This document shows, in pieces, positions 1,176 to 64,000 of a DNA stretch of 64,000 bases; the first letter of the stretch is position 1; each line of letters opens with the position of its first letter. The translations under genes were made by a program, and so were the position numbers. The stretch is taken from IMG/VR virus record IMGVR_UViG_3300042562_002450, positions 134,627-198,626 of that record. One strand, 5' to 3'. This stretch comes from a virus. Below the pieces are notes generated by a model. That model saw nothing but the letters and a program-made list of their open reading frames with translations. It made no database searches and was not told the DNA's origin.

Positions 1176-1478
1176 TACTTACCTGTTGCTTTTACTGGAA
1201 ATATCTTATTATAAAGTTGAGAAGATAGAACAGCAACCTTATTTATTCATTCTGAATTTTTTATTGACTTAGATTCTTTATAGAAAAAAAGAAAGGGTAT
1301 AGCTTGAAAGTGAACTCTAGTTATGTTTTCTAGCGAAAACAAAAGAAGAAAGAAAGAATCAAAGTGAAATACTTAAAAAGAGTTTATCATGGAATTCTCA
1401 GGATAGGAAGGTTAATACATTGGATTATTTTAAAGAAAATATGATATAGTTAATAGATAGAACTAGTTAAGGAGTAAA

Positions 1479-1961
1479 ATGTATTATCTTACTTTTATAT
1501 TTAAAGATCCAGATACACTTATAATTAAGTGTGTTGGTGTTAAATATAAGAAAACAGAGTTTGAAGACTCCGATATTGCTAAGTTGCTGAAACTAGGCAC
1601 TTCTAATATTGAGACTAAGTTTTGGCTTAAGGAACTAAGAAAAGAAAATAAGATACCAGTTCTTGAGATACTATATAAAGGTCTAAGTTCAGCTGAAGCT
1701 TGCTTTGCAAAACAACAAATACTAATACAATCTGTAGAAGAAAAGATTGACCTAATTGGTCAACAACCTTTAACTAAGAAGTATACAAAAAAGATGAGAA
1801 GCAATAATAGTATGCGCTCTGCTATTGTTGATCAGTTTGGAAATAACTACTCAGGCATACTAGAAGCAGCAGAAAGATTACTACTAGCTCCATCTAATAT
1901 TTCAAAAGTTTTACATGGTAAGCTTGAACATATTGGTGGATATATCTTTAGCTTTCTTTAA
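1479..1961 (+). CDS. Free-standing GIY-YIG-like homing endonuclease with C-terminal NUMOD1-type HTH, probably degenerate
   Basis: YYLTFIFKDP...KCVGV and WLKELRKENKIPVLEIL resemble the Y-x-L-x-DP...YVG GIY-YIG subfamily; C-terminus YSGILEAAERLLLAPSNISKVLHGKLEHIGGYIFSF is NUMOD1-like; it lies antisense to its neighbours. Confidence 0.6.
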   Translation: MYYLTFIFKDPDTLIIKCVGVKYKKTEFEDSDIAKLLKLGTSNIETKFWLKELRKENKIPVLEILYKGLSSAEACFAKQQILIQSVEEKIDLIGQQPLTKKYTKKMRSNNSMRSAIVDQFGNNYSGILEAAERLLLAPSNISKVLHGKLEHIGGYIFSFL

Positions 1962-4900
1962 TATCCTCTGCCTATCTTGTCTTGCATATCGTGATAATCA
2001 AAGTTTCTAGTGTCATCTTTTATTCTCATACTAGATGTATTGTGCTCAGCAGCGTACTTATTTATTTGGAAACCAGTTCTTGCATTCCCTGATATTGATG
2101 GCTTCATGTGTCTTGGACTTTTTATATTTGGAGCACCAGGAGGACTAAAACCGACTCCATTACTTTTGTTATGTCCAGATTGCATATCTCCAAACTCAAC
2201 ATCAGCTTCAATGCTTGATCTTGCCCCAAATACTGTTCCAAGCAATCCTAAGATTGCTGCTGGAGCAAGTGCGTACTTAGCTAAGTTTCCACCAAAGCCT
2301 TTACTCATTGCCTTCACATCATCAGTATTATCCATTATTGTTTTAACAAATTCTGATTGTTTTACCTTACTGCCTTCTAGTATTCTATTTAATTCCCTTG
2401 CTTGATCAGCTGCATTCATTCCACCTTTATATTCTCCAGCAAGGTTGCTTACTTCCATTAGGTCTGTTACTGCCTCATCTGAAGTAAGGTAAAGGAAATC
2501 TTTCTTACTGACACCACCTTCTCTGGAAAAGATAGCTTCAATTTCTTCTGAAGTCTCTCCTGCTCTGATCTTGTCTCCAAGATTTACGGTTGATTTCTCA
2601 TTAAGACTTAAAAAGAGTTCATCTGAAAAATCTCTAAAAGTTTTTATTTTCTCAGTTATATGCTTAGATCCAAACTCTCCATCTCCAGTTATGGAATCTA
2701 GAACTTTTTTTGCTCTTCCACTTATCAGATCTTCAGTTGATTGTGCTTTTCCTTTGATAATGTTTTCAGCAAAAAGATGCAAGGTATTCTCTACTCTAGC
2801 GAACTTTTTAATATCACCATTATTAAGCATGGCATTCATCTGGTGTAACGGACTGGCACTATTAGAAGCTATTCCAATAAAGCCTTTTTCTAAATCTTTA
2901 GCAAGAAAGGTTGAGAGTCTCATTTCCGCTAAGTCATTAGTAAGAACAGATGCTGCCTCTCGACCTTTTAGGGTATACCTTGTTTTGATTTCTTGAGCTT
3001 TCCTTAATTCAATTGAGTCTTCTGTATTTCCATATGCTCTTTCTTTAACTTCATTTGCTGCAGCTTCTGTCTTTGCAGCGATAAGAGACATCGTATCTCC
3101 ATCATAATCTCCATAAACCATTCTAAGGATATTGTTTTTTTTGCCTGAAGCAATAGCCATCCTTTCATCAGAAAGGGCTTCTAAGCCTTCTATCGAATCA
3201 GAAGGTACAACATTCACGGTAATTGCTGAAAGCCCCTCTACTGGCTCTCTAACAGCTACAGCCCATGTATCTGAGAATCTATTAGCACCTGTCTTCTTGT
3301 GAAAGGCATCGTAAGCATCTTCTCCATACATCTCTATGAATTTATTCTTATTAACAGCAACAACAAATGGTTGAGCGTTTTTAGTCTTAAACTTAGCAGC
3401 TAAACTATCAGCATATTCTTCAAGAGCATTTGAACCTGATGAAACTTGAGCATTCATACTGCTAGTTACTTTTCCCTTAAATATTTTGCTTCTTAAATCA
3501 TCACGCATCTGAGAGATTGCACTGTCATAGTTAGTAACCAATGTAGTTAATCTTTCTTTATTTCTTTCTAGTTTTGGTTTTCCCATTTCACTTATTATAT
3601 CTTTGGTTATCGTATCTAGTTCTGTATATTTTTTATACTTACCGCCATGTCCAATCTTTTCTCCAATATGACCTTTCATTGAAGGATCTGTGAAAATCCC
3701 TATCTTTCGATATCCTAAGATTTCATCTTCAAGGTCAACATAAGCAACACCATCAATAGCCTCATTACTAAGGTATGCTGCCCTTTGCTTAAGAACACTA
3801 TTAGATCCTAGCTTTTCTCCTTCAACATCTAAAGGAAAGACATTAGAATTAAAGTCTCCTCCTTGTAGTTTTTCTGGATTAATAATGCCAGCTTTAGTTG
3901 GATTAGTTATGTCTTTCATCATTCGATGTGATGCTTCAAAACTATTAAGTCTTGCATTGGCTCCTGGGTCTAATCTTCTTGACATGACATCTTCAGCAAA
4001 GGCATCAAGTCCCATAACGCTATAGAGTCCTATGTGTCTTTCAGAGAAGAATCCTAGACCACCAGCTCCTGTATCTATTGCAGCATTACCGAATGCAACA
4101 TCTTTATTTTTAAAAAAACCTACATTGGATCTTAGTCCACTAATTTCTTCAAATTCATCTTTACCACCAATGATAGTTTCTATTCTTTTAAAATAGTTCA
4201 TTTTTTCAGTATCATCTATTCTTTCAAAATTAGAAAGAAGGTCTTCCCCAGCTTCATATATTGCTGCCCATTTATTATTTTCAGCATCAGACATCTTAGA
4301 TGCCCCATAGGTTATTCTCTGTCTAGCCTCATGTCTAATGGAATGAAACATACTAGATAAATTACGTGGATCTAATCCGCTTTTCATTGCACTTGAGTTT
4401 GCTATTACTTCTACGTTTTTTATTCTTCTAATGACTTCAGGATCTAATGGCTTATTACCATTTAATTCTTGATAGTATCTCAATATATACTTCTCTAATC
4501 CATCGATACTTCTTTTAACTGTAGCTTTAACCTCACCTGCAATGTCATGAATCTTATCTCCTTGATCAAGCAATCTTTGCTTCCTAAAGCCATAAGTTAA
4601 TCCTTCATTCTCAGAGATGTGAATATCATCAAGATACAATCCTCTATGTTCTTTTTCTAGTTGAACTTTTCTTTGTCCATCTCTTGAGATTCCTAGTAAG
4701 TTTCTATTTCTAAACTGTTCTTCTCTGGTTATTATTTCTTTTTCTATTTTCTCAATTTCAGAAGATAATGATCCTTGCCCCTTAAGTCTTTCAGCATCAG
4801 CAAAATATATCTGCTCACCTACTGGACCTGAAATTACTCCAGCTGAATTTGAGTTAACTTTAAGATATGCTTGTCTTTTGTTTTTTGAATCCTCTATAGC

Positions 4901-6367
4901 TTTTTTTAAATATTCATGATAGTCATCAACATTAATTTTTGTTAGTTTTGCTCTAACCTCAGGGCTAAATGCTTGGAAGCCCCCACCTTGTTTTAGCTTT
5001 GCTGCAAAATCTTTTTCAGACAAGCCAGCGGCATCACTCATCCTCCCCATTAAAAAGCGGGAAAGATCTGTCTCTTTTCCTGCATGGATCTGGAGTGATC
5101 GAGTATTATCTACAAGAGTTCCAGCAAGCTGCCTATTTGTTAAAAGTTCTTCTTTTCCTAAGTGACCGAATGACTTACCTTCCTCAGCTAAGTATTCATT
5201 TATTCTTGTTATCCCTTTTTCATCCATAAAAAGAACTTCTTGATTATGATTAAAAGAGTGGTTACCTTTTGAGTCTATATGGGATGTATTAGTTCTTAAT
5301 CCTTGCTTGGAATTACTGGCTTCTTTTGCGAAAGGCTTTTGCTCTATAACATTGCCTTTTAGGTAAATGATACCTTTATTTACATCTGAAGCATTTCCTG
5401 CATTCCTTCCATCTAAGGCTTCATTTTTAAGTATTTGTTTTTTATCAAATTCACTCATTGGTTGAAATGGATTAGCCTTGGCACTATGTCTATGTAAAGC
5501 AATAGCTTCTGGATTCATTTTTGATGTATTCATAAACCCAGTAGCTTTGTCATTATATTGCATTAATTCCATAAACCTATTGTTATACTCGTCTAAGTTC
5601 ATTTCTCCACTTATGAATTTACTATAGTTTTCTCTTATTCCTCTGACATATGCGACATCAGCTCCTACTATTTCTCCAATACCAGTTCCTGTTGAGTTAC
5701 TATTAAATACTCCTCTAATCACAGACTGATTCTGACCAGCAGAACCCATTGTTACCATGCCTTCTTTGTTAACAGTATGAACTTTTATTTTCCCAGCTTT
5801 AGAAGGAATACCAATAGAGGTTATCTGACCAGTGCTATCAAAGTTAACTGATATCGCACTTGATCTTCCTCTCTTTCTTCCTGACGCTAACCCTTCTACT
5901 GAGTTGTCTGCTTGATCTATTGTAACTTGAAGAGCTTTTAGCTCATCCATTAGTGTTGCACTTTGGTTTCTATATCCACCATCTAAGAAATCAGCTATTC
6001 CACCGCCAGCTTTTGAGCCACCTGACATTATGATCTCATCATTAATATTATTTATTGCTGCAAAGTTTCTTCTTTTAGATACAGCTTTTTCAGTATCTGT
6101 ATATGTATATAAATCTGTATTCTTTAATAAAGAATCTATAGGCTTTTGATCCTCGACAGCTTGAGCTACATCTTTGTTCATTAGACTACTTAAGTTCTTA
6201 ATGAATTTATTATTTTCTTTTCTTAGCTTGCCCCTACCTGTCTTGAAGTGACCATGCTTGATAGACTTGTCTAAAGCTACAGCAGCACCACCAAATAAGG
6301 CGGCTCTTCCTGCAATTGAAAAAAAATCATAATTAACATCAAATCTATCTTCTGTCGTTGTGATCAT
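1958..6367 (-). CDS. Putative virion-packaged single-chain two-barrel RNA polymerase
   Basis: GDKIHDIAGEVKATV (beta-type two-Lys motif), IANSSAMKSG, VAVREPV and catalytic-type GDYDGD (3095-3112), then KGFIGIASN. Start at ATG 6367 overlaps the TGA of the upstream gene (ATGA). Confidence 0.75.
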   Translation of the reverse strand: MITTTEDRFDVNYDFFSIAGRAALFGGAAVALDKSIKHGHFKTGRGKLRKENNKFIKNLSSLMNKDVAQAVEDQKPIDSLLKNTDLYTYTDTEKAVSKRRNFAAINNINDEIIMSGGSKAGGGIADFLDGGYRNQSATLMDELKALQVTIDQADNSVEGLASGRKRGRSSAISVNFDSTGQITSIGIPSKAGKIKVHTVNKEGMVTMGSAGQNQSVIRGVFNSNSTGTGIGEIVGADVAYVRGIRENYSKFISGEMNLDEYNNRFMELMQYNDKATGFMNTSKMNPEAIALHRHSAKANPFQPMSEFDKKQILKNEALDGRNAGNASDVNKGIIYLKGNVIEQKPFAKEASNSKQGLRTNTSHIDSKGNHSFNHNQEVLFMDEKGITRINEYLAEEGKSFGHLGKEELLTNRQLAGTLVDNTRSLQIHAGKETDLSRFLMGRMSDAAGLSEKDFAAKLKQGGGFQAFSPEVRAKLTKINVDDYHEYLKKAIEDSKNKRQAYLKVNSNSAGVISGPVGEQIYFADAERLKGQGSLSSEIEKIEKEIITREEQFRNRNLLGISRDGQRKVQLEKEHRGLYLDDIHISENEGLTYGFRKQRLLDQGDKIHDIAGEVKATVKRSIDGLEKYILRYYQELNGNKPLDPEVIRRIKNVEVIANSSAMKSGLDPRNLSSMFHSIRHEARQRITYGASKMSDAENNKWAAIYEAGEDLLSNFERIDDTEKMNYFKRIETIIGGKDEFEEISGLRSNVGFFKNKDVAFGNAAIDTGAGGLGFFSERHIGLYSVMGLDAFAEDVMSRRLDPGANARLNSFEASHRMMKDITNPTKAGIINPEKLQGGDFNSNVFPLDVEGEKLGSNSVLKQRAAYLSNEAIDGVAYVDLEDEILGYRKIGIFTDPSMKGHIGEKIGHGGKYKKYTELDTITKDIISEMGKPKLERNKERLTTLVTNYDSAISQMRDDLRSKIFKGKVTSSMNAQVSSGSNALEEYADSLAAKFKTKNAQPFVVAVNKNKFIEMYGEDAYDAFHKKTGANRFSDTWAVAVREPVEGLSAITVNVVPSDSIEGLEALSDERMAIASGKKNNILRMVYGDYDGDTMSLIAAKTEAAANEVKERAYGNTEDSIELRKAQEIKTRYTLKGREAASVLTNDLAEMRLSTFLAKDLEKGFIGIASNSASPLHQMNAMLNNGDIKKFARVENTLHLFAENIIKGKAQSTEDLISGRAKKVLDSITGDGEFGSKHITEKIKTFRDFSDELFLSLNEKSTVNLGDKIRAGETSEEIEAIFSREGGVSKKDFLYLTSDEAVTDLMEVSNLAGEYKGGMNAADQARELNRILEGSKVKQSEFVKTIMDNTDDVKAMSKGFGGNLAKYALAPAAILGLLGTVFGARSSIEADVEFGDMQSGHNKSNGVGFSPPGAPNIKSPRHMKPSISGNARTGFQINKYAAEHNTSSMRIKDDTRNFDYHDMQDKIGRGY

Positions 6368-9300: not shown

Positions 9301-11847
9301 CCCTCTGTGAAGCATTAGCTTCCCATTTTCAAAAACAACTTTATGTATCCCCTCTTCTCTAAACTTTCTATTGAAAGCTTTGTCCATATATTTGGCATAT
9401 GATTCGCCTTGTTGTGTTTTAAAATCAACTTCAAAACGGGCAGTATCATACATACCATAGCTGGCAATGTCTCCTAGCCCAAAAGCTTTTGGAAAGCCAC
9501 CAAGAGAAGCCTCTGCTCGTCTTATTGTAGAAACAAGTAAGTCCTGAGCAGTTGAGTGAGTTCTGTTTAAAAGTTTTTCATTATCCACTAATGGACTAAG
9601 CGCACCTAGGTATTTAACATCATTAAGTCTTCTCTTAGAAGCTTGATGCTTAAATACTGAGTAAGCTCCTATAGTCCCTAATCCTGTCAACCCTATCTGA
9701 GTCCATGACATTGGATCTTCATTAGGATCTTCTGGCTTATGAAAGTCCTGTGTTCTAAAACCAGAACCAAATGATGTATTGTATTTCCTTTGATTTTGAG
9801 TCGGGGATCCATGCTGGAGTCCCTCTATTGTATTTGCCTCATCATCACTACCGGAAAATTTAAATAGATTAGTCATTGCACTTCCGAGCATGACTGCACC
9901 GAAAAGCATTGTTCCCATTTTTGCTGTTTTCAATGCTTTAGTCTGAGCATCTGTTATGTCTGGAATCGCTTTATTGCTACGAAGAAAAGTCATTCCCTCA
10001 TCTGAGTTTTTATATTTTAAAAGCTCTTCATCGTATAGTTTTTGTGAATTAGCAATATCATCTGTAAAAATTAGATTTTCTTTATTATATTTAGGATTTA
10101 TTTTCCCTAAGCTTTCTCCTGCTTCAATGTTACCCTTTATCATCTTAGCCATTGACTCTCGATACAAAACAGGTTCTTCAGCCTGTCTCATCTTCAGCCA
10201 ACTATCTGTTGCCTTGCTTAACTCTCCCCCTCCTTCAACTTCCTTCATTGCATTAACAAGCATTTTGGAAAGTCTTCCCTGCTGAAAGTTATCTAAGTTA
10301 CCATCATGCCATTCTTTCTCACCTAAGAATGATCTAGCTAAGAAATTAATATTAGTTCCAACGCCAAAACGACTAGTCTTAGCAATAAGATTTTTCTGCT
10401 GAGCCATTGCATTCAATGTTTTAGATAATTCCTGTATCTCAATAATACTACCCTTAGAATCAAGAGCCTCATTTAATATTTGAGTTGCTCTTATCTTTTG
10501 GTTAGAAACCAATCTATTAAAACCTTCTTCTTCTGTTATCTCTCCTCTTTTAACTTTACCTAATATGCTTTTTCTTTGCATACTTTGTTCTGACCTTAAC
10601 TGCATATATTCTTGTGAGTAACGAACAGGACTTCGACCGTCAAACAGTTCTTCAAAATGATCTATCTCAAAGTTTGCATTCATTGCAAGAATATTCTTTT
10701 TATTTTTCTTTGCATCTTCTAAGAAACCATGAACATATCCTTGTACTGATCTTCTTTTTGCAACTTCGGCAATAACGTTTCCTGCGAAACCTTCTTGAGT
10801 ATTTGAAAGTTGTTTTGAATAATCATTTACTTTTTGGATTTTAGTAAAATCAAAATTCTTTTCCTTATGTAGCTTTCCTATTGCAGTTTGATCATAAAGG
10901 AATGGATGATTTTCTAATTTGAAATTATTAGGTTGCTGCATAAAGATAGAGTGATAATCATTCCCTCTTTTTAGCGAGACTTGAAACATTGAATGCTTAC
11001 TTGACTTTAATGACTTTGTTTCGATATCAACACCATATTGATCATCAAAAGCATTATCAATATCCCCACTGGTAAGTTTTAGGATATCTGAAAAATCACC
11101 TAGTCGAAAAGGAGATCCAAATGCAGTTGCCATCTTTCTCATCTTTCCAAACCAACCATGACCCATACCTTCTATTATTGGCCTAGCTTCTCTTCTCATG
11201 TTCCTAATGAAAGGATTATTGCTTTTGATTCCAGCATGCACAATAGATTGAGATTTAATCTCTTGAAGTCTAGAATAGTCACCTGCGAAATCTGCATGAT
11301 TTAAGGCAGAAAATTTTTGATCTGAGTTGTTAAAAATAGGTAGTGCTTTTTTCTCAATAAAAGACTGAACTCTCTTTACTTTACTTAGATCATTCTGGTA
11401 TTTATCAAAATCATACTTTTGATGAATAGTCTTTTGCATGTAAGGATTATCTTGATTAATATAATGAAGATATCCTTTCTTTATCTTTGAGTTGTGCATT
11501 AAAGCATTGAGCTCTGATTGGTCTACGGACTTAGCTTTATTCATTATTATATTTTCAAAATCAGCAGCAGATACAGCTTTAACCTTTCCTATGCCGTCTT
11601 TTGAAACTTCATCAATAAAACCAAATTCTCCACCATTCGTATTCTTTATCTTTACATCATTTTTTATAATATCCTTTTCAGATATCCTTTTCTTTTTTAC
11701 TATTTCTTTCAATGTATCATTTGATCTTTTTTGCAGACGTTGAATAGTATCAGGGGTATTTTTTTGAATAAAAGACTTTAATAGATCCTCATGGGTCTTT
11801 CCAAAGTCAGAAGCCTTAACTGGGAGATGTTTTCTTTTATTATCCAT
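6364..11847 (-). CDS. Tape-measure-like large virion protein with a DEDDh exonuclease-like domain
   Basis: 1827 aa, directly after chaperone-like and tube genes; Gly/Ala-rich hydrophobic segments; DIET...AMNANFE...HDGNLD motifs. Confidence 0.65.
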   Translation of the reverse strand: MDNKRKHLPVKASDFGKTHEDLLKSFIQKNTPDTIQRLQKRSNDTLKEIVKKKRISEKDIIKNDVKIKNTNGGEFGFIDEVSKDGIGKVKAVSAADFENIIMNKAKSVDQSELNALMHNSKIKKGYLHYINQDNPYMQKTIHQKYDFDKYQNDLSKVKRVQSFIEKKALPIFNNSDQKFSALNHADFAGDYSRLQEIKSQSIVHAGIKSNNPFIRNMRREARPIIEGMGHGWFGKMRKMATAFGSPFRLGDFSDILKLTSGDIDNAFDDQYGVDIETKSLKSSKHSMFQVSLKRGNDYHSIFMQQPNNFKLENHPFLYDQTAIGKLHKEKNFDFTKIQKVNDYSKQLSNTQEGFAGNVIAEVAKRRSVQGYVHGFLEDAKKNKKNILAMNANFEIDHFEELFDGRSPVRYSQEYMQLRSEQSMQRKSILGKVKRGEITEEEGFNRLVSNQKIRATQILNEALDSKGSIIEIQELSKTLNAMAQQKNLIAKTSRFGVGTNINFLARSFLGEKEWHDGNLDNFQQGRLSKMLVNAMKEVEGGGELSKATDSWLKMRQAEEPVLYRESMAKMIKGNIEAGESLGKINPKYNKENLIFTDDIANSQKLYDEELLKYKNSDEGMTFLRSNKAIPDITDAQTKALKTAKMGTMLFGAVMLGSAMTNLFKFSGSDDEANTIEGLQHGSPTQNQRKYNTSFGSGFRTQDFHKPEDPNEDPMSWTQIGLTGLGTIGAYSVFKHQASKRRLNDVKYLGALSPLVDNEKLLNRTHSTAQDLLVSTIRRAEASLGGFPKAFGLGDIASYGMYDTARFEVDFKTQQGESYAKYMDKAFNRKFREEGIHKVVFENGKLMLHRGNVVEEMKGSFSLMKTVTDNNQSKSMASIARSHLSQLGLKNVQQMSKFDFLITNGVDHFASAFIHETVSKPMKLMSDPFEALTDVIPELDDYFTPWMKKTLGPDGFIAKFFNTGLDGNELATNWQGMLKSHGGKLAGVGALAYFGLGTLNWGAEKIAPDGTPIGDAGLLGGAAYSVRKAHETYARLSDITGLTGFRDYIESKAPGSEGWQSTIGLTLAGGMAGGLWGSVQGLALESSATDKYGQFLKNAEKTESFDGILGKIFKKNVTKTGKAIRTGGAIGFALALPFTLAGFGADKSASELGLEYSGEKEVAVKKGRFWESSFTPWEGSEVDYYRPNWYAKLIDDSKNEELYGGNISPFTKLGRSIYDPFWLEKNRYFDQPYPLTGPDGSMLGIFGPAYEASLGRIIKPVATMHESELPEGFLDNTEYDIDALARKQWNSALEFMGLRGFAVKAIKETITGSSEIFSDPNEVRSAKDIDSITRDFYDLQLGGGILTTEALRRVFQNQDGFQKAQMDATINLNPLKNMMPSWMPGSDFYQDFQHGDPFLKVKDGYSRLPGEGFAQKYEELKGMDPNDYPDIFKYKILSDVAYGSMEHRNIKGKLQNRELTQYEQDIFDDVQRQVDEKKKSELNARDPSTYDSFLGRYSAVLTDLARSNPLETLLPVSPAHKFLAPPDIEDVLEEQRYSKDYRNWANPIDDFIMPTVSMTLNSMGLGGIDMSSDQAEIADYFDKTDYMKFTNLARDAQSKGDLKSADRYTIMAQKTYTGKDLYSHPSDVVRSLPKNERASYKYFIKTDRATQVKMIGRVNPRHRDAYQAQMDNQIRQEAMKSQSMSNQQRKKVMKDVEARQRAIQARRSAELQDYQSRMPGNDWVGWSPAVSVDSAQNRYLENAARDTHAYTGRRSAREGDLSQVAAATVNIPASSSSDYASHYSSLSASGVENALVVMRPGLDNSPDLDITLDRRSERNDALREWGYVV

Positions 11848-11863
11848 TGCCTCATTCTATCAT

Positions 11864-11878
11864 TTATAAATAATAGCA
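11864..11878 (-). promoter_or_regulatory. Candidate late promoter (TGCTATTATTTATAA)
   Basis: The TTTATAA core ends 17 nt upstream of ATG 11847, similar in sequence and spacing to the sites at 35698 and 40598. Confidence 0.45.
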
Positions 11879-11911
11879 TCATCTAGTAAAAATACTAAAC
11901 CGAGCTACAAA

Positions 11912-12496
11912 TCATATAAGTGTTTGATTTTCTTTACTAAAGTCAATGTACTCTTGGCCATCTGCTCCTTTCTTCATTGCTGGAGCTCTAGCTTTATCAA
12001 CCTTATTAGCTTTGGGATTTGAAACAAAATCAAAGGTAGTTCCAAGTATCTTTTCTGCTTGAACTAGTCTTCTCATCTGTGTCTTCCATTCCATATCCTC
12101 AACTTCCTCTGGGGTGTATGCAGGGAATGCCTGACAGATTTTAACTATAATTTCATCTCTGAGATTCATTGAGCTATCTCGTACTGAACTCAATTCTTCT
12201 TGGATTTCTTTTTCTGATGTTGGATTAGAGAATCCTAGGATTAAACGAACTATAGTAGATACAACACCAGCATTAAGAGTATTAATTGTTCCTCTTAATG
12301 TATGCTCTACTACACATTCTTCCCATATGTTATCTTCAACAATAGGGGCTAGAGCTGGATATGCTTGGCATATTCTTTTGGCAGTTTCACATTTAGAATA
12401 ACTTAATGGCTTAAATAAAACTGAACCTTTACCTGTATTAAACAGATAAAGGTTCTTATACTTTCCATATAATTCAAATGCATTGCCATTATTCAT
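11912..12496 (-). CDS. Tail assembly chaperone-like protein 2
   Basis: Lies between tube genes and tape measure; VLFKPLS motif parallels FLFRPLK of the upstream gene. Confidence 0.5.
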   Translation of the reverse strand: MNNGNAFELYGKYKNLYLFNTGKGSVLFKPLSYSKCETAKRICQAYPALAPIVEDNIWEECVVEHTLRGTINTLNAGVVSTIVRLILGFSNPTSEKEIQEELSSVRDSSMNLRDEIIVKICQAFPAYTPEEVEDMEWKTQMRRLVQAEKILGTTFDFVSNPKANKVDKARAPAMKKGADGQEYIDFSKENQTLI

Positions 12497-12499
12497 TTT

Positions 12500-13063
12500 C
12501 TATAGTTTTCTAACTAGAGTTACGGCTCTTTCTGGCTCCATGAAATTAGATGCTTGAAGGATTAAATTTCTGATTGCTTCTGGAGCTCCAGCAGTTAATA
12601 CATTAATATTAGCTTGATTTAGCAATGGCCAAACGACACCAGCCATCACAATACCTTCTGTTCTTTGCTGCTCAGATAGTTTTGATTTTTCAAATCTTTG
12701 CATAAGCTCACGCCATTCTTGACGTTTCAGAGGTCTGAAAAGAAAGTTTTCTTTTTCACTTAAAGAGCAAAGGTATATTTCTCCATGCTTACCTTTAAGT
12801 GTTTCTATTTCAGTTTCAGAAGGACGACGTTCAAGACTTTTAAATGTTTGAATTACAAAGTCTGAATTACTTTTTTTCTTTAGAAGTTCTTCTAGTTGTT
12901 TTTCTTCTTCTATGGAAAGAAGGTATGACACATCATCAATATCTACTGGGATATCCTTATCTAGGGATTCAAGATCCATAGCAAAAACATCATCTAAATT
13001 AGGCTCTTGTTCTTCTGTATTGTAAAAACTATCATCAACTTCAGTTTTAACTTGGTCAGTCAT
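12500..13063 (-). CDS. Tail assembly chaperone-like protein 1
   Basis: Position; acidic N-terminus; HGEIYL...FLFRPLKRQEW...VVWP pattern typical of myophage tail chaperones. Confidence 0.55.
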   Translation of the reverse strand: MTDQVKTEVDDSFYNTEEQEPNLDDVFAMDLESLDKDIPVDIDDVSYLLSIEEEKQLEELLKKKSNSDFVIQTFKSLERRPSETEIETLKGKHGEIYLCSLSEKENFLFRPLKRQEWRELMQRFEKSKLSEQQRTEGIVMAGVVWPLLNQANINVLTAGAPEAIRNLILQASNFMEPERAVTLVRKL

Positions 13064-13095
13064 GTCATCTCCAATTCTTTTATTTGATGACTAAA

Positions 13096-35805: not shown

Positions 35806-37809
35806 CTAGATAATTGATCTAGATATTCTTCTGGAGTTTCTAGCTGTTTTAATTGAATCTCTTGCATTCCTTCTTATGTCACGTCTGTCATCATTATTGA
35901 AAGCTTCTTTCGAATAAATACGACCTGAGTTTGTTCCATAAATCGGATTATTTAAAAATGATACTCCGTTCCTTACACTATTACTAGTAATATCTGAACG
36001 AGTTTCTGGTCTTTGTATTGATCTTCCACCAATAGATGGCTCTGCTATATTCCCAGAACCTTGCCCAAAAGATCCGCTAACAGCAACACTACTTGAGAAA
36101 TGCTGTTTAGTGTACTCACCTAGTTCAATTTCTAAGCCAACTACTGCTAACATAAAAGCATCAAGATCATGATCTCCAGCTGGGCCAGCTTGATATATTG
36201 CCATCCCAGAAGCATTAACTCTTGCTATGCTGTAACCATGCAATTGCTTAAGTAGGACTTCATCTTCAGATGAAAAGTTAATCATTCCTCTTTCAAAAAA
36301 CCGAACATTACTTTCAATGATAAATGGTTTCATATGCATTTTCTGAGGTAATCCAGTTACTGGATCAAATACATCTAACTTAGAACTTGAGTTTATACCT
36401 TTAGTGTTTATGAAATTCATATCTAAATGAGCGAATTGATCTTTTCTCATTTGGGCATCTTGACCGATCTTACGAAGGAGCTCAATCTGAGTTGCACCAT
36501 AACCAGTGTCGACATAGATATATGTACAGTTCCAAATACGATTCATTTCTAATGCTTTCTGAACTGCAGCAGTCTGAACCCATCCTGCTTTTTGAACAGT
36601 GGCAGATGCCACACATCTAATACGCCCATCACCTGGACTATATTCTACTATTCGGATTTTTGTCCCATTTTCCGCATCATTCCAGTCGATACCCATTGAA
36701 TATATATAGTCACGATTATAAACCATATCTTCATACTTATAAGAAACCATAGCAGTTTCCAACAAGCCAAACTGAAAAACTGATGTAGCTGCTTCTCCAA
36801 ACTCTGCAAGAATTTCATGTTGCCATCCAATTTCTGTACGATAGGATGCTCGAAGTTCTGCTTCCATCTTTGGACCCCAAGAAGGATTAGACAAAGAAGA
36901 ATAAAAGAACTCTTTAAAATCCATACGTTGAGTACAAAAATCATAAAAGTATTCTCTACGACCTGATGGCGTAGAAGCTGCAATCATCTCTACATCATTA
37001 TGCTCCATTAAGAGAGCGATAACAGTATCGATATCTTCCTGCTTTAAATAGTCCATCTCATCCATCATAATAAAATCAGCAGGCTGACCTCGGACAGAAG
37101 ATGCACCAGATGAACCAGCAGAAAATCCAGAAATAATCATTCCAGACTTTAATGTAACTTTGTAATAAGGTGTAGCAACAAATGATTCAACCTCAGAGGC
37201 AAGCTCTGGATTCATATCAAACATACGCTTCATACGAGCAAAGAAATCTTTTACCTGTGATAAATAAGGAGCAAGGAATAGAATAGATCCAAACCCTTTA
37301 ACCCATTCATTACGGTGAGCATCCCATCTTTGTTCTTTTGGGGAATTATTAAATAAACGAAATAATGCCCAGATCAACATAACTTCAGACTTACCTAATC
37401 GACGACCACAACGTAAAACTTTGCGCTTACTGGAACATCTTAAGATATTAGATTGATACTCAATCTGCTTATTCGATTTACGGGGTCTCCAACCAAAGTA
37501 CTTTTCAGCCCAAGTAACCGCATCGTAAACTGCAGTTAAATCATATAATTCGCCGTCAGAAATCTTCTCTCCAGACTCTTTCTCAATTCTTTCTAATAGA
37601 TAATCTTGTCGAGGGATATATTTATTCTCATCAGGGATACCTTTGCAATCAATAATGAAGTCGCCCTTTTTATATAAAGGCAAACCAGTTTCATTATTAA
37701 CGGGGCCATCTATAATGGCTACCCTACTATTAACACAATCAAGACAAAATTGGGTAAGCTTCTTACCTTCTTTTGCCAGCGTGACTGAGGGATGCGGGAC
37801 AAAACTCAT
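35806..37809 (-). CDS. terL: Terminase large subunit
   Basis: Walker A GRRLGKS, Walker B MMDEMD, STPSG motif, RNase H-like GIDWN / YVDTGYG / DHDLDA. Confidence 0.95.
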   Translation of the reverse strand: MSFVPHPSVTLAKEGKKLTQFCLDCVNSRVAIIDGPVNNETGLPLYKKGDFIIDCKGIPDENKYIPRQDYLLERIEKESGEKISDGELYDLTAVYDAVTWAEKYFGWRPRKSNKQIEYQSNILRCSSKRKVLRCGRRLGKSEVMLIWALFRLFNNSPKEQRWDAHRNEWVKGFGSILFLAPYLSQVKDFFARMKRMFDMNPELASEVESFVATPYYKVTLKSGMIISGFSAGSSGASSVRGQPADFIMMDEMDYLKQEDIDTVIALLMEHNDVEMIAASTPSGRREYFYDFCTQRMDFKEFFYSSLSNPSWGPKMEAELRASYRTEIGWQHEILAEFGEAATSVFQFGLLETAMVSYKYEDMVYNRDYIYSMGIDWNDAENGTKIRIVEYSPGDGRIRCVASATVQKAGWVQTAAVQKALEMNRIWNCTYIYVDTGYGATQIELLRKIGQDAQMRKDQFAHLDMNFINTKGINSSSKLDVFDPVTGLPQKMHMKPFIIESNVRFFERGMINFSSEDEVLLKQLHGYSIARVNASGMAIYQAGPAGDHDLDAFMLAVVGLEIELGEYTKQHFSSSVAVSGSFGQGSGNIAEPSIGGRSIQRPETRSDITSNSVRNGVSFLNNPIYGTNSGRIYSKEAFNNDDRRDIRRNARDSIKTARNSRRISRSII

Positions 37810-40611: not shown

Positions 40612-40639
40612 ATAAATAGTATTTGACAGAAGATCAAGT

Positions 40640-41140
40640 ATTTACCTTTTTTAGGGGTATTTAAAATATGTTTATTTTAGTCAAAAACGGTTGCGAATCG
40701 ACTGTTTCTGTTCGAAAGCTGAAAGAAACTGAAGAGAACTGAAAAGAAAAATGAAATTACGAATCAAAAAAATGAAAAAATGAAAAAAAATAGAGTTCTC
40801 CCTAAAGGGAGAATTAAGATATTTTATAAGATATTGGAATAATTAAGGTCTGGGAAAAAAGACCTAGGTAAGCGCTAATTGCAACATGCGACTGCAGTTA
40901 CCCTAAATGGGTAAAGATTTGGCTGAGTATGCTTGCGACTGCATGACTCTCCGCGCCGATGACACCCCCCCCGTAAATGAAAAATAAAAAAACAAAAATT
41001 GGGAATTCGCAATTTGCAAAATAAAAAATAAAAAAGCGTTAAGGGGGTGGGGGTCAAAAAAAACTAAAAAAAATAAAATGGGAATTCGAAAAAGCGAAAA
41101 TGTTTTCGTGTAGTCCTAGATTGATTGATCAAATAGATCT
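40640..41140. other. Divergent non-coding control region; candidate genome terminus or packaging site
   Basis: Transcription direction switches here; phased A-tracts, TGCGACTGCA direct repeat, C8/G5TG5 inverted arms, GGGAATTCG twice. Confidence 0.45.
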
Positions 41141-41193
41141 CACCTCTAACAATTTCGTTCGAGGTACCGGGGTCTATATATAAAGGAATTTTT

Positions 41194-41970: not shown

Positions 41971-42147
41971 ATGTCTTATTCTCTAACTGATGCTATGGCA
42001 TCACTGGAAAACACTTACGAGTACGCATTGCGTGCTCAAGAGTGTGACTACAACGATGAGCATGAAGCTTATCACAAAGCTGCTATTAAGGCGGCGCTAG
42101 AGGCTATCCATGCTCAAGCAGCACTGGAGGCTTCTGATAAGGAGTAA
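41971..42147 (+). CDS. Early hypothetical protein (58 aa, not in ORF track)
   Basis: AGGAGG RBS; MSYSLTDAMASLENTYEYALRAQECDYNDEHEAYHKAAIKAALEAIHAQAALEASDKE. Confidence 0.75.
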   Translation: MSYSLTDAMASLENTYEYALRAQECDYNDEHEAYHKAAIKAALEAIHAQAALEASDKE

Positions 42148-42150
42148 TCC

Positions 42151-42214
42151 TTATTACCTTAATGCAGCCTATGCCGGTCACAAGCCCGGATGAAAAATGC
42201 AGAGTGAGGGATAA
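42151..42214 (+). ncRNA. Twister ribozyme, type P1
   Basis: CCU-UAA-UGCA-GCC-UAU-GCCGG-UCACAAGC-CCGG-AUGAAAAA-UGCA-GAGUG-AGG: P1 CCU/AGG, P2 UGCA/UGCA, P4 CCGG/CCGG, T1 pseudoknot CAC/GUG; predicted cleavage U42160/A42161. Confidence 0.9.
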
Positions 42215-42306
42215 AACATAAGCATGGATTTAAGCTTATGCCCAAAATATAAAACCTCTACATGTATAGTTGGACTATATGTGTATACAAGGAAAAGGAG
42301 CACACC

Positions 42307-42492
42307 ATGAAACGTGATGCAACTGTTCATTCCCAAGCTCGCAAGGCTTGGCGTGAACACAAGCGGTTACGTCGTGATAAAGCTAAGTCCTATTCAAGTG
42401 AACGCTTGATAGGCTGGCGAAATCGCGAATGGGTTAAGGCTCAGCGTAAGTACAATGAAGTACTTGCCTGGTCTGACAACCAAGCCGCGTAG
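42307..42492 (+). CDS. Early basic hypothetical protein (ends QAA)
   Basis: AAGGAG RBS before ATG 42307. Confidence 0.75.
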   Translation: MKRDATVHSQARKAWREHKRLRRDKAKSYSSERLIGWRNREWVKAQRKYNEVLAWSDNQAA

Positions 42493-42660
42493 TACCTAAC
42501 GGTACTGCAACATATCCTGAAACGATAGGGATATGAAATATACCTCCCACTGTAATGGTGGGATGTATATAAAACTTATATAGGTATTACTTATATTGGT
42601 TCTATATACATTGTGTATAAACTACATATTTTATGTAGTTATTTTAGATAAAGGAATTTT

Positions 42661-42912
42661 GTGAAAATAACAATTAACATGTTTTGTGATCGTCTTCTTG
42701 GAGACAACAAAATGGAAGTGCTAATGGTAGCAATTCATGCACGTAAGCTTGATCCCTCTATTAGATTAGAGACAGTTCAGGCTATATATGATGTCAAGTT
42801 TACACTTGATTCATGCATCATGTTTTCTACTGGTAGTGAAGAAGATAAGCAGATTATCGCTAGATTAACTAGTGAGTATGAGTCTCTACTATCACAAGGC
42901 ATGATTCTTTAG
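42661..42912 (+). CDS. Early hypothetical protein
   Basis: AAAGGAATTTT-GTG RBS. Confidence 0.75.
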   Translation: MKITINMFCDRLLGDNKMEVLMVAIHARKLDPSIRLETVQAIYDVKFTLDSCIMFSTGSEEDKQIIARLTSEYESLLSQGMIL

Positions 42913-42925
42913 TAGTAAACGATTA

Positions 42926-42989
42926 AGGCCGAAACGCAGTTACTAAGTAACGTAAGTCGTATATGTGTAATGCACATACTGATGAGGCT
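42926..42989 (+). ncRNA. Hammerhead ribozyme, type II (copy 1)
   Basis: GCC-GAAAC-stem III-GUA(42961)-UAUGUG/CACAUA stem I-CUGAUGA-GGC. Confidence 0.88.
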
Positions 42990-43021
42990 GTATCTAATAA
43001 TCAAATATCCTAGGAGGATAT

Positions 43022-43183
43022 ATGAATGACATAGATAAATGTTTTGAATTGATGGAGGCTTACATTCGAGCAGATGAACGTAATCATAATGGCGAATATT
43101 ATGAGGTATCTCTTAGTGATAAGGAAATCGCTATTGCTGCTGATCTTGATCTCGCTAACTGGATCGAAGACCTAGTTGCTTAA
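43022..43183 (+). CDS. Early acidic hypothetical protein (53 aa, not in ORF track)
   Basis: AGGAGG RBS; MNDIDKCFELMEAYIRADERNHNGEYYEVSLSDKEIAIAADLDLANWIEDLVA. Confidence 0.75.
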   Translation: MNDIDKCFELMEAYIRADERNHNGEYYEVSLSDKEIAIAADLDLANWIEDLVA

Positions 43184-43184
43184 A

Positions 43185-43247
43185 AGCCGAAACGTCTTAT
43201 CTACTGATAGATAAGAGTCTATGTGTAATGCACATACTGATGAGGCT
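43185..43247 (+). ncRNA. Hammerhead ribozyme, type II (copy 2)
   Basis: AGCC-GAAAC-G-UCUUAUCUA/UAGAUAAGA stem III-GUC(43219)-UAUGUG/CACAUA-CUGAUGA-GGCU. Confidence 0.92.
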
Positions 43248-43262
43248 AATCTTATTAGGTAA

Positions 43263-43484
43263 TTGGAGGTTCTTTTGAAAAAGCACACTTCTCCTTCTGA
43301 TCTCTATGAGATCAAAATGTCTGCTCTGCACGGGGCAGCCATGGACTTGATTGAGTTGGAGTTAAATCAGCCCATTTACTGGGTTGATTCTGCTCTTGCT
43401 TCCCTTGCTCTTGACCTTGCCACTGAGGAGTTAGCTAATGCTGAACTTCTTTTGGATATCTGGTTGAGTACAACAGAAAACTAA
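43263..43484 (+). CDS. Early acidic hypothetical protein
   Basis: ORF filling the space between hammerheads 2 and 3; start may be TTG 43275 after GGAGG. Confidence 0.65.
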   Translation: MEVLLKKHTSPSDLYEIKMSALHGAAMDLIELELNQPIYWVDSALASLALDLATEELANAELLLDIWLSTTEN

Positions 43485-43485
43485 A

Positions 43486-43551
43486 AGCCGAAACGCTTTC
43501 ACTTAACAGTGATGTAAGCCGTCTATGTGTATTACACATACTGATGAGGCT
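43486..43551 (+). ncRNA. Hammerhead ribozyme, type II (copy 3)
   Basis: AGCC-GAAAC-bulged stem III (UCACU/AGUGA)-GUC(43523)-UAUGUG/CACAUA-CUGAUGA-GGCU. Confidence 0.92.
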
Positions 43552-43608
43552 GTTCTTAATTAATCCCTAAACATTCACTTATACATATGAACTAACTAAG
43601 GAGTCTTT

Positions 43609-43899
43609 ATGTTAGTAAACATTCGTCGTATATCGAATCATGCAACTGAACGTCTTGTAGAGACATATAGAGTTGCCCCTAAGATTCAAAAGATTATTGC
43701 TTTAGTTGTTTCACAAGCAGCTAAAAATGTAATCGAGTATGGCCGTGATAATGCTGTATTCGTTATTAACCCTAATGAAGGGGCTTATGTGGTTAAAGGT
43801 GACACTGTTGTTACTTTTATTCATAAGTCTCGTATTGGTGAGTTCGGTAACTGCCAACGTGCTTATGATCATTATAAATCTACTGGTAAAGCAGCTTAA
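43609..43899 (+). CDS. Early protein with possible BECR-type RNase fold (DUF4258-like); ends KAA
   Basis: ISNHATERL near the N-terminus and YVVKGDTVVTFI near the C-terminus. Confidence 0.4.
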   Translation: MLVNIRRISNHATERLVETYRVAPKIQKIIALVVSQAAKNVIEYGRDNAVFVINPNEGAYVVKGDTVVTFIHKSRIGEFGNCQRAYDHYKSTGKAA

Positions 43900-44696: not shown

Positions 44697-44752
44697 TATC
44701 TCACTATAGAGCTTAACAATATCGTTAGGTTCTACAAATTAAGGAGTATCCA

Positions 44753-44962: not shown

Positions 44963-45018
44963 TTAATCACTAAAGGGCCTAGTAATATAGCTAGGCTCTA
45001 TAAAATAAAGGAGTCTCT

Positions 45019-47246: not shown

Positions 47247-47585
47247 TTAGAGCTCAGCAATAATGCTGGGCTCCATAAACAAAAGGTATTGTCACTCATG
47301 AAAAATTTAATCCGTATTACTTGTTTAGAAATTTACTTCCTTCTCTTAAACGAAAAGCACATGTGGCTTGAAAAAAGAGGAACATACATCGATGATCAAT
47401 ATATGGTTGGTGATGCCATTGCTGATCAGCTATATGGTACTGGACATTATTGGTGGGCTAAGGCTCTTCTTGAATGGCAATACAGCAGAGCAACTGGGAA
47501 AGTAATAACTAAATAATTATAAAAACTTAGAGCTCAGCAATAATGCTGGGCTCCATAAACAAAAGGTATTGTCACTCATGAAAAA
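47247..47585 (+). repeat. 59-bp exact direct repeat (47247-47305 and 47527-47585)
   Basis: TTAGAGCTCAGCAATAATGCTGGGCTCCATAAACAAAAGGTATTGTCACTCATGAAAAA occurs twice, 280 bp apart. Confidence 0.95.
47298..47516 (+). CDS. Early hypothetical protein
   Basis: ATG lies inside repeat copy 1. Confidence 0.65.
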   Translation: MKNLIRITCLEIYFLLLNEKHMWLEKRGTYIDDQYMVGDAIADQLYGTGHYWWAKALLEWQYSRATGKVITK

Positions 47586-47906: not shown

Positions 47907-48215
47907 ATGAATATGTCAGAAAAAGATTTATGCATTATTTTACCACTACTATGCAATGAGATTGCTAACAACTTAAATGGCTTATTCTACAATGACGACT
48001 TTGATGATATGCAAAAGAGAGAGGATTTCGAAAACAAGCTAAGTGTAGCATTTAAGATAATGGATAATTCCAACCCTACTGAAGAGTTTAAATCTTGGCT
48101 TAATGGTGTATCTGAAAGGTATCAGACAGAAAAGAACGAACACGATAGAGAGGTTCGATATTTTGAAAGAATAGCAAAATTAGAAAAAGAACTTAATAAA
48201 AAAACAAATGACTAA
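47907..48215 (+). CDS. Early hypothetical protein
   Basis: AAGGAG RBS. Confidence 0.75.
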   Translation: MNMSEKDLCIILPLLCNEIANNLNGLFYNDDFDDMQKREDFENKLSVAFKIMDNSNPTEEFKSWLNGVSERYQTEKNEHDREVRYFERIAKLEKELNKKTND

Positions 48216-48259
48216 GAGCTCAGCAATATCGTTGGGCTCTAATTACAAAAGGAGTATCT

Positions 48260-63839: not shown

Positions 63840-64000
63840 AAAAGGAATTTATATGTTTGAACAACTTTATAAGTTAAAAGCTTTAAGTGATTGTTTTTAC
63901 TTATTAAATAAAAGTGAAATTGGTGATTTGATTTATCTTAGAGAAAAGATTCAGCAAAATGTTTCTCTTTTAAATGATGATCTTAGTTTTTTAAATTTTA

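Follow-up and report, generated by a model that had tools for sequence, protein, structure and literature searches.

A twister and three type II hammerhead ribozymes in consecutive small-gene junctions of a large phage genome

Layout of the ribozyme array

Four self-cleaving ribozymes, one twister and three type II hammerheads, occupy four of the five consecutive junctions between six co-directional small genes of a large phage. All four are located within 1.4 kb on the coding (+) strand, and their core-conserved positions are all intact. They are the sole elements of their kind in the 198.6-kb genome, according to searches with a hammerhead descriptor, with a covariance model called R1 and for twisters. 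The array lies in a window of 64,000 nt, the whole stretch of DNA that was analysed. It is a clean additional example of a layout described in phages since 2011 and not a new phenomenon.

The phage context is given by the IMG/VR record and by the large terminase. The genome (~199 kb) is AT-rich (36% GC) and belongs to an uncultured, apparently lytic-type phage. Firmicutes-like traits are the AAGGAG ribosome-binding sites (RBSs), the GC content and a terminase closest to those of Moorella and Bacillus phages; by these sequence traits, the phage looks Firmicutes-associated. A strand switch and a promoter-like site are found at ~40.8 kb, and a rightward block of small orphan genes begins near 41.2 kb. 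Early expression of this block is plausible. No terminator-like site was found on the + strand between 40815 and 46500.

All six genes of the array region are on the + strand and encode orphan proteins. Gene 1 (41971–42147) encodes an acidic protein of 58 aa (pI 4.6, from the ORF list and charge) and ends in a TAA at 42145–42147. The product of gene 2 (42307–42492; 61 aa) is very basic (pI 11.0); this gene starts at ATG 42307, not at the longest-ORF start, and has the RBS AAGGAAAAGGAG. Gene 3 (42661–42912; 83 aa) uses a GTG start and ends in a triple in-frame stop, TAG TAG TAA. Gene 4 (43022–43183) encodes a strongly acidic protein of 53 aa (pI 4.05, net charge -10), and gene 5 (43275–43484) an acidic one of 69 aa (pI 4.2), whose start is most likely the TTG at 43275 behind GGAGG and not the longest-ORF start. 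Gene 6 (43609–43899), the first gene past the array, encodes a basic protein of 96 aa. No family was matched by any of these six proteins in Pfam and PHROG searches. The flanked proteins show no mutual similarity, which rules out a duplication of gene-plus-hammerhead cassettes. An SD-like sequence (GGAGG or AAGGAG) is present 3' of each ribozyme, followed by a start codon at 27–96 nt.

The twister ribozyme

The type-P1 twister is located at 42156–42210 on the + strand, with an extended P1 spanning 42152–42214. It is the only twister that was identified in a genome-wide search. It matches RF03160 with 52.3 bits (E = 3.2e-10 by cmscan of a 2.5-kb stretch; 8e-9 on the whole window), which is 15 bits under the gathering cut-off of 67.2 bits because the optional P3 stem is absent and replaced by CUAU. 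The full-length alignment to RF03160 contains the conserved nucleotides and the P1-P2-P4 arrangement, and places the predicted cut between U42160 and A42161, in the UAA internal loop. The complementarity of the T1 pseudoknot is present as CAC/GUG. Its middle pair covaries among 85 phage twisters (A-U in 37, C-G in 35, G-C in three and U-A in two; four are non-pairing, and the partner motif was not found in another four), and the twister in the window carries A-U, one of the covarying forms.

The possibility that the upstream gene ends in the twister's own UAA, with non-stop mRNAs as the outcome of cleavage, was ruled out. A frame of at least 40 codons is closed by 26% of the twister UAAs, compared to 19% of random TAAs, and a separate ORF ends just upstream in 11 of the 16 frame-closing cases.

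The three hammerhead ribozymes

The hammerheads HH1 (42927–42989), HH2 (43185–43247) and HH3 (43486–43551) are all on the + strand. A compact descriptor (4-bp stem II, GAAA and CUGANGA), run over the 198.6-kb genome, gave three matches, which are exactly these elements. Model R1 was built from 87 hammerheads of other phages only; it contains 15 stem pairs, ten of which show compensatory changes, including pairs in stems I and III. It detects HH1 with 42.9 bits (E = 3e-11), HH2 with 43.3 bits (E = 2e-11) and HH3 with 45.8 bits (E = 4e-12). No further match was obtained in the window at E-values of up to 10, or in the genome at up to 1. The R1 alignment puts the three elements in the type II topology, in which stem II is open and loops close stems I and III. 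In HH1, the order is GGCC, GAAA, stem III, GUA with the cleavage site, stem I (loop GUAAUGC), CUGAUGA and GGCU. A three-way junction is formed in the minimum free energy (MFE) folds of HH1 and HH2. The MFE fold of HH3 mispairs the CUGAUGA region with stem I, and its junction is taken from the R1 alignment.

The core of each hammerhead consists of CUGAUGA, GAAA and the A15.1-U16.1 pair, and position H17 is A, C and C in HH1, HH2 and HH3, respectively. The core-adjacent pairs 10.1-11.1, 1.1-2.1 and 15.1-16.1 are G-C, U-A and A-U, the standard pairs used as a hammerhead rule by Perreault 2011 (PMC3088659). The elements have a 4-bp stem II, a long stem III (interrupted in HH1) and a GC content of 40–43%. 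They match a short-loop subclass with loop I GUNANGC and a fourth stem II pair, loop I of HH3 (GUAUUAC) being non-consensus with two minority variants. The three copies share the same stems I and II, and their 3' halves are nearly identical across ~35 nt. The usual tertiary contact of type II hammerheads is a pseudoknot of at least 4 bp between loop I and the 3' tail. It is absent in HH1, and the 4 bp possible in HH2 and HH3 are matched by ~30% of shuffled tails. Fast cleavage at cellular Mg2+ concentrations requires such a contact, and that none is evident here counts against the processing proposed below. Other hammerhead permutations gave eight core-only candidates genome-wide, all within coding sequence and without helices.

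Rfam at its gathering threshold gave no matches in the window. Its hammerhead models, including Hammerhead_II (RF02276), did not match HH1–HH3 even at E<=10, whether the search covered 106 nt, the 2.5-kb stretch or the genome, and the gathering threshold of RF02276 (37 bits) is not reached by any of them. Control phage hammerheads score just 37–45 bits with RF02276. The failure is explained by the composition of the model and not by the absence of the motif: the RF02276 seed is GC-rich and carries an AGCCaAA pseudoknot tail, whereas HH1–HH3 are AT-richer with a short GUNANGC loop I. Core sequences, helix topology and cleavage sites are alike between the two Rfam models and the elements in the window. 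Censuses of phage ribozymes that use the curated Rfam model are thus undercounts, from which AT-rich, short-loop type II hammerheads are missing entirely.

The predicted cleavage sites follow GUA at 42961 (HH1), GUC at 43219 (HH2) and GUC at 43523 (HH3). The elements begin 14 nt (HH1), 1 nt (HH2) and 1 nt (HH3) past the stop codon of the preceding gene. An earlier sequence-only reading had placed one twister and three hammerheads at these four positions of the coding strand, and the RF03160 match, the descriptor and R1 confirm it. Its twister start, 4 nt past the gene 1 stop at 42147, corresponds to the beginning of the extended P1 at 42152. Its hammerhead cuts agree with ours, and the strong RBS it noted behind each ribozyme is the SD-like sequence described above. 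It had also named the two Rfam models as a check, of which twister-P1 recovers its element and Hammerhead_II, for the reason of composition just given, does not.

Proposed processing of the transcript

As judged from sequence, the most likely role of the array is self-processing into shorter mRNAs, since genuine elements are located on the coding strand in junctions of co-directional genes and no terminator-like site is present on the + strand. The sequence-only reading had suggested the same, and this part of it stands. Quite probably, a polycistronic RNA is self-cut at the four junctions into hairpin-capped pieces, uncoupling the genes in decay and translation. The block of small genes from ~41.2 kb would be transcribed into one long RNA, in which the twister and the three hammerheads would fold co-transcriptionally and then cut themselves by internal transesterification. 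Cuts are predicted after 42160, 42961, 43219 and 43523, each giving an upstream product with a 2',3'-cyclic phosphate and a downstream product with a 5'-OH. The released pieces would measure ~801 nt (genes 2 and 3), 258 nt (gene 4) and 304 nt (gene 5), and gene 1 as well as genes 6 onward would be split off from these middle pieces.

In phage T7, the early polycistronic mRNA is cut between genes at long duplexes by the host RNase III. In both phages, intergenic RNA elements would give rise to gene-length, hairpin-ended mRNAs. The T7 RNA is cut by a host protein, whereas the RNA of the phage studied here is predicted to cut itself, with a 5'-OH and a cyclic phosphate at the resulting ends.

The predicted product ends fold as terminal hairpins. 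Each upstream hammerhead product would keep its stop codon and terminate in the stem III hairpin, and each downstream product would open in the 7-bp stem I hairpin with no unpaired nucleotide, followed by its own RBS. Both products of a type II hammerhead are capped in this way because both flanking stems are closed hairpins. These automatic caps are a possible reason for the prevalence of the type II permutation in phage operons. The downstream product of the twister starts with two unpaired A residues. The terminal hairpins, more than the 5'-OH itself, may set the stability of each piece, and neighbouring genes would therefore be uncoupled in decay and translation. The proposal of the sequence-only reading that 5'-OH ends resist RNase E is questionable and host-dependent; in B. 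subtilis, a 5'-OH admits RNase J1 (PMC3328962).

The remaining junction, between genes 2 and 3 (42493–42660, + strand), carries no recognisable ribozyme. It is 168 nt long and consists of consecutive hairpins, the first 83 nt having a z-score of -5.3. It gave no Rfam match at E<=10 and no R1 match, and it fits none of the twister-sister, pistol and hatchet classes. This junction might hold a phage-specific terminator or promoter, which would break up the single transcription unit.

Stop-codon placement and the other junctions

The close spacing between stop codon and ribozyme is a feature of the whole family. Among 143 phage type II hammerheads, 76% start within 5 nt past an ORF end, compared to 6% of random positions, and the median gap to the stop codon is 1 nt. 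In 53 of 138 elements, the first strand of stem II is directly adjacent to the stop codon or overlaps with it. This abutment suggests that cleavage is tied to translation termination in a way that can be tested. In addition, nine other junctions of the operon contain, instead of a ribozyme, a conserved and repeated hairpin of the form C-AAUWUC-G. By analogy, these AAUWUC-loop hairpins could be the protein-dependent counterpart of the ribozymes.

A different role could be derived from these observations, in which the position of the ribozymes serves more than compact packing and belongs to a junction code. Folding and cleavage would be gated by translation of the gene upstream, because the terminating ribosome would cover stem II and the GAAA core. 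In this phage, the ribozymes would be interchangeable with the hairpins, which would act as a second, protein-dependent signal, and perhaps with the unclassified element at 42493–42660. We consider this reading rather unlikely. No description of the stop-codon rule or of the interchange between ribozyme and hairpin was found in a limited search of the literature.

Alternative roles of the array

Cleavage might chiefly serve gene shut-off, with the 5'-OH exposing the RNA downstream of the cut to destruction by a 5'-exonuclease (RNase J1 in Firmicutes). The function of the ribozymes would be to restrict how much of the small, possibly toxic proteins of host takeover is made, or for how long. This is in line with the glmS ribozyme of B. 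subtilis, whose 5'-OH product targets the downstream RNA to RNase J1 (PMC3328962), with the Firmicutes-like RBSs, GC content and terminase of the phage and with the two unpaired A residues that open the twister product. However, the downstream products of the hammerheads have no unpaired 5' nucleotide in front of their 7-bp hairpin, so that a 5'-exonuclease should be impeded, and the strong RBS after each hammerhead suggests that translation of the gene behind it is intended. The RNase J1 route also presumes a Firmicutes host. We regard a shut-off function as unlikely.

It is very unlikely that the hammerheads act above all as modules for the boundaries or the recombination of exchangeable small-gene cassettes, in a role similar to that of the promoter-early stem-loop cassettes of T4-type phages, and that RNA cleavage is secondary or incidental. 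The near-identical 3' halves (~35 nt) next to unrelated genes would fit such modules, as would the within-array similarity seen in other phages (e.g., L016 and L031), the repeated hairpin in the other junctions of the operon and the literature, which describes the flanked genes as small, variable and lacking conservation (PMC3088659). Yet the catalytic cores are fully conserved and compensatory changes occur in stems I and III throughout the family, which indicates selection on an RNA fold and not on DNA identity alone, and an equivalent slot is held by the twister, which is unrelated in sequence.

The 258-nt (gene 4) and 304-nt (gene 5) fragments might be re-ligated into circular or spliced RNAs by a re-assembled hammerhead, through the shared stem II GGCU/AGCC, or by an RtcB-type ligase. 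The end chemistry is appropriate, the half-ribozymes are complementary with stems I and II the same in the three copies, and Perreault et al. had considered such re-ligation (PMC3088659). It is nevertheless highly improbable, as such products were sought by the same authors and none was detected, and the ends would be held by a mere 4-bp stem II. That the four motifs are inactive relics or chance matches, as the missing Rfam hammerhead match, the twister score below gathering and the lack of a supported tertiary contact could suggest, is hardly tenable in view of E-values of ~1e-11 with an independent model, no other match in 198.6 kb, intact core positions, equivalent positions of the four elements and an Rfam seed (GC-rich, pseudoknot-type) with which even controls reach just 37–45 bits.

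Comparison with known arrays

Close relatives of the phage were found neither by megablast/blastn against 50,697 phage records nor with a phage-specific hammerhead pattern in viral and metagenome contigs. The terminase retrieved only relatives at 28% identity from viral and metagenome contigs. These two distant relatives gave no R1 or twister matches, and the positive controls worked.

The sequence-only reading had called a mixed-class array unusual, which does not hold. Multiple hammerheads flanking single genes in prophages were described by Perreault 2011, who proposed a function in mRNA processing, and polycistronic self-processing is the standard hypothesis for such arrays (PMC3088659). 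Cleavage in vitro was shown for three tandem arrays; the RNAs cut by such tandem prophage hammerheads are polycistronic and ~2 kb long, and one set also cleaves in vivo (PMC3088659). In D. vulgaris, cyPhyRNA-seq showed activity of three type II hammerheads located close to phage-like genes (PMC8782182). The array presented here shows the same arrangement, in which at least two ribozymes lie close together on the coding strand and flank phage genes, with four in 1.4 kb. In both systems the hammerheads lie within ~1–2 kb on the coding strand and flank single small genes, the type II topology is common and the same processing into single-gene mRNAs is proposed (PMC3088659). In contrast to those prophage arrays, the present one is found in a ~199-kb, AT-rich genome of an uncultured, apparently lytic-type phage, and its copies are predicted ribozymes with short loops, without an evident pseudoknot between loop I and the tail, and invisible to Rfam.

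Twisters and hammerheads share common gene neighbourhoods, beside small non-conserved ORFs in phages (PMC6765202, PMC6155905). It was from shared neighbourhoods that the ribozyme nature of twister was first suspected, and twister-sister, pistol and hatchet were later found through them (PMC6765202). The twister of the window, located in a hammerhead-type junction, does not differ in any essential way from the neighbourhoods of Roth 2014 and Weinberg 2015 (via PMC6765202). The dense mixed-class array of this large phage can serve as a test case for the roles of the thousands of self-cleaving ribozymes of bacteria and phages. In a pattern search, the hammerhead architecture of this array was found in at least 120 viral contigs, with up to eight copies in 4 kb, and seven other loci in viral contigs combine twister and hammerhead.

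Genome and operon setting

The phage contig, whose last 64 kb form the window, is 198,626 bp long in IMG/VR and estimated by CheckV to be 89% complete. Its GC content is 36% and its ribosome-binding sites (RBSs) are of the AAGGAG type. The large terminase gene, located by Pfam/PHROG searches at 35806-37809 on the minus strand, encodes a protein nearest to the terminases of Moorella and Bacillus phages (~30% identity). The minus-strand gene block to which it belongs ends at 40637, and from 41194 to the window end the ORFs are nearly all on the plus strand and mostly small. Six of these (genes 1-6, 41971-43899), each with a strong Shine-Dalgarno sequence, matched no family in Pfam and PHROG searches; of the proteins they encode, three have very low pI values (4.05-4.55) and two are highly basic.

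A bidirectional terminator (40794-40815) lies ahead of a gene-free leader. Because it is followed by a promoter-like site at ~40.8 kb (40814-40843), and no terminator-like site was found on the plus strand between 40815 and 46500, it is plausible from these signals that one RNA spans the ribozyme junctions. The leader itself (40851-41193, plus strand), a 343-nt stretch between the strand switch and the first small gene, is heavily structured (MFE -85 kcal/mol) and holds two A-rich 33-nt repeats (40980-41012 and 41059-41091), each ending in TGGGAATTCG. At the far end of the contig, GC falls from ~36% to 25-26% over the final 10 kb (54000-64000), within which lies a 1485-aa ORF without Pfam match (59113-63570).

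Identification of the ribozymes

At gathering thresholds, Rfam reports nothing across the window. In E-value mode, the type-P1 twister model (RF03160) matches 42156-42210, between genes 1 and 2, from end to end with 52.3 bits (E-value 3e-10 on a 2.5-kb stretch, 8e-9 on the whole window). The score stays under the 67.2-bit cut-off because four nucleotides replace the optional P3 stem. The sole departure in the conserved stretch is CAC...GUG against a consensus of CCC...GGG. In a set of 85 distinct twisters taken from viral contigs, the middle pair of the T1 pseudoknot is A-U in 37, C-G in 35, G-C in three and U-A in two; the positions do not pair in four, and in another four the 3' partner motif could not be located. 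With A-U in 37 of the 85, the T1 pseudoknot of the window twister is thus a common compensated form. In a possible 9-bp hairpin (42131-42156, plus strand), the last codons and stop of gene 1 (UGAUAAGGA-GUAA) are complementary to UCCUUAUUA, which forms the 5' strand of the extended P1. Before cleavage, this hairpin would be in competition with P1; after cleavage, it would cap the upstream product at its 3' end.

A simple hammerhead descriptor (4-bp stem II, GAAA, CUGANGA) applied to the whole genome gave only three compact candidates, also found by eye, on the plus strand: HH1 (42927-42989), HH2 (43185-43247) and HH3 (43486-43551). The minimum-energy folds of HH1 and HH2 contain the three-way junction; that of HH3 mispairs the core. 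The Rfam check proposed by the sequence-only reading therefore holds for the twister, below the cut-off, and not for the hammerheads, which matched no Rfam hammerhead model even at E<=10 on a 106-nt stretch. This miss is explained by the Hammerhead_II consensus (RF02276), which is GC-rich with a 3' AGCCaAA pseudoknot tail; at other phage loci, used as positive control, the model shows matching topology and scores 37-45 bits against a 37-bit cut-off.

The search pattern GCCGAAAC-N25-55-CUGAUGAGGC was found in at least 120 viral contigs, with 149 elements among the matches listed. From these listed matches, 87 distinct aligned elements, none from the present genome, were used to build a covariance model. 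Their consensus fold has 15 pairs, 10 of them with compensatory double changes in 31-47 sequences each. In the window, the model yields exactly three matches (45.8, 43.3 and 42.9 bits; E 4e-12 to 3e-11), scores partly owed to the 18 core bases shared with the search pattern, the spacing and both hairpins being scored independently. Nothing beyond HH1-HH3 appears in the window up to E=10, and they are also the only matches on the whole genome. The array of one twister and three hammerheads had been read correctly from the bare sequence and is well above chance. The predicted cuts agree as well: between U42160 and A42161 in the twister, after C43219 and C43523 in HH2 and HH3, and in HH1, as placed by the covariance-model alignment, behind GUA (42961) and not behind the GUC three bases upstream.

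A short-loop hammerhead subclass

Fast natural hammerheads require a tertiary contact, which in type II is usually a loop I/3'-tail pseudoknot (PMC3088659). Among the matches listed, at least four complementary loop I/tail bases are present in 86% of the long-loop elements versus 30% of the short-loop ones. No such pseudoknot was found in HH1; HH2 and HH3 have a 4-bp complementarity, a level attained by ~30% of shuffled tails. This weakens the case for their activity. The short-loop subclass (50 of 138 elements, on 37 contigs, among the matches listed) is mostly without this pseudoknot. Its loop I, G-U-N-A-N-G-C, is conserved, and a fourth stem II pair occurs in 84% of its listed members versus 30% elsewhere. 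HH1 and HH2 have the exact loop I motif (loop regions 42962-42978 and 43220-43236) and HH3 has two minority variants; by sequence, all three can be assigned to this subclass, whose members RF02276 scores at or below its own cut-off. The 3' halves of HH1-HH3 are nearly identical and the proteins they flank are unrelated. The stem III sequences of HH1 and HH3 are homologous, with compensatory changes.

Placement and proposed processing

The ribozymes occupy four of five consecutive junctions, as originally noted, and constitute the entire hammerhead and twister complement of the 198.6-kb genome in genome-wide searches. The gap from the stop codon is 4-8 nt for the twister, 14 for HH1 and 1 for both HH2 and HH3, and 27-96 nt separate the ribozyme ends from the next start codon. 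Among the matches listed, 76% of 143 phage type II hammerheads begin no more than 5 nt downstream of a same-strand ORF with at least 40 codons; for random positions the figure is 6%. In this listed set the gap has a median of 1 nt, and 53 of the 138 distinct listed elements have a stop codon that abuts or runs into the first strand of stem II. Stop-codon abutment is a property of the phage type II family and not of one phage. Stop codons and ribosomes are not mentioned by Perreault 2011 (PMC3088659). The abutment could be mere compaction; it is also possible that the terminating ribosome gates hammerhead folding.

Self-processing, as first suggested for this operon, is the working hypothesis accepted for such arrays. 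A long transcript would be cut at the junctions by the twister and the hammerheads, which would release genes 2-3 on a product of 801 nt, gene 4 on one of 258 nt and gene 5 on one of 304 nt. Because of the type II topology, each hammerhead cut would fall between two closed hairpins: the upstream product would retain its stop codon and terminate in stem III, and the downstream product would open flush in the 7-bp stem I, followed by CUGAUGAGGCU and the RBS. We infer that these hairpin caps would outweigh the end chemistry. The suggestion that a 5'-OH resists RNase E holds only for hosts relying on that enzyme; the phage has Firmicutes-like features, and in B. subtilis the 5'-OH left by the glmS ribozyme exposes the RNA to RNase J1 (PMC3328962).

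Precedents and conservation

The arrangement, first regarded as unusual, is not so: it has precedents both in the literature and in other viral contigs. Clusters of several hammerheads that flank single genes or small groups of genes are frequent in prophages (Perreault 2011, PMC3088659), an arrangement like the present one; three tandem arrangements were cleaved in ~2-kb transcripts in vitro, and one in vivo (PMC3088659). According to a 2017 review, hammerheads flank ORFs of small, non-conserved proteins, other self-cleaving classes occur at these same ORFs, and the link to phages is persistent (PMC6155905). Twister was recognised as a ribozyme through gene neighbourhoods common with hammerheads, and ribozyme clustering was used in the discovery of twister-sister, pistol and hatchet (2019 review, PMC6765202). 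At least 120 IMG/VR contigs carry type II hammerheads whose stem II has the GCC/GGC form. Arrays among the matches listed include the viral contig loci L016 (eight copies in 4 kb, 889-4793), L031 (five, 10788-13090) and L030 (four, 2152-5075). At no fewer than seven other fetched loci, one strand carries a type II hammerhead together with a twister core, some 350-550 nt apart, a lower bound given that the strict descriptor recovers only one of the three hammerheads of the present phage.

No close relative of the phage was found among phage records, viral contigs and metagenome contigs, and two relatives (28% terminase identity) showed no hammerhead or twister in searches with working positive controls; the array is therefore not demonstrably a conserved feature of the clade. 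The absence in distant relatives fits the sporadic ribozyme distribution described in the literature. What is added to existing knowledge, of modest value, is that Rfam overlooks such hammerheads, together with the short-loop subclass, the hairpin caps predicted for the products and the rule on stop codons.

Other junctions of the operon

Nearly every non-overlapping junction of the operon carries either a ribozyme or a covarying hairpin of 8-11 bp with an AAUWUC-like loop, frequent G-U pairs and no U-tract. These hairpins, each just upstream of an RBS, lie on the plus strand at 41142, 41413, 41652, 41929, 44707-44734, 44974-45000, 47249-47275, 47529-47555 and 48215-48241. Their loops (AAUUUC, AAUAUC, AUAUC, AAUAUA or AAUAAU) are closed by C-G, except for U-G in the AAUAUA copy. 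A protein-dependent processing site and a phage-polymerase signal are candidate roles. The only ribozyme-free junction of the array (42493-42660, plus strand) consists of 168 nt of consecutive stable hairpins, the first 83 nt having a fold z of -5.3, and matches neither Rfam (E<=10) nor the hammerhead covariance model. Two 59-nt stretches, 280 nt apart (47247-47305 and 47527-47585, plus strand), are 100% identical. Each spans a junction hairpin, the RBS and the ORF start. Their identity suggests that a small-gene cassette was recently duplicated or underwent gene conversion.
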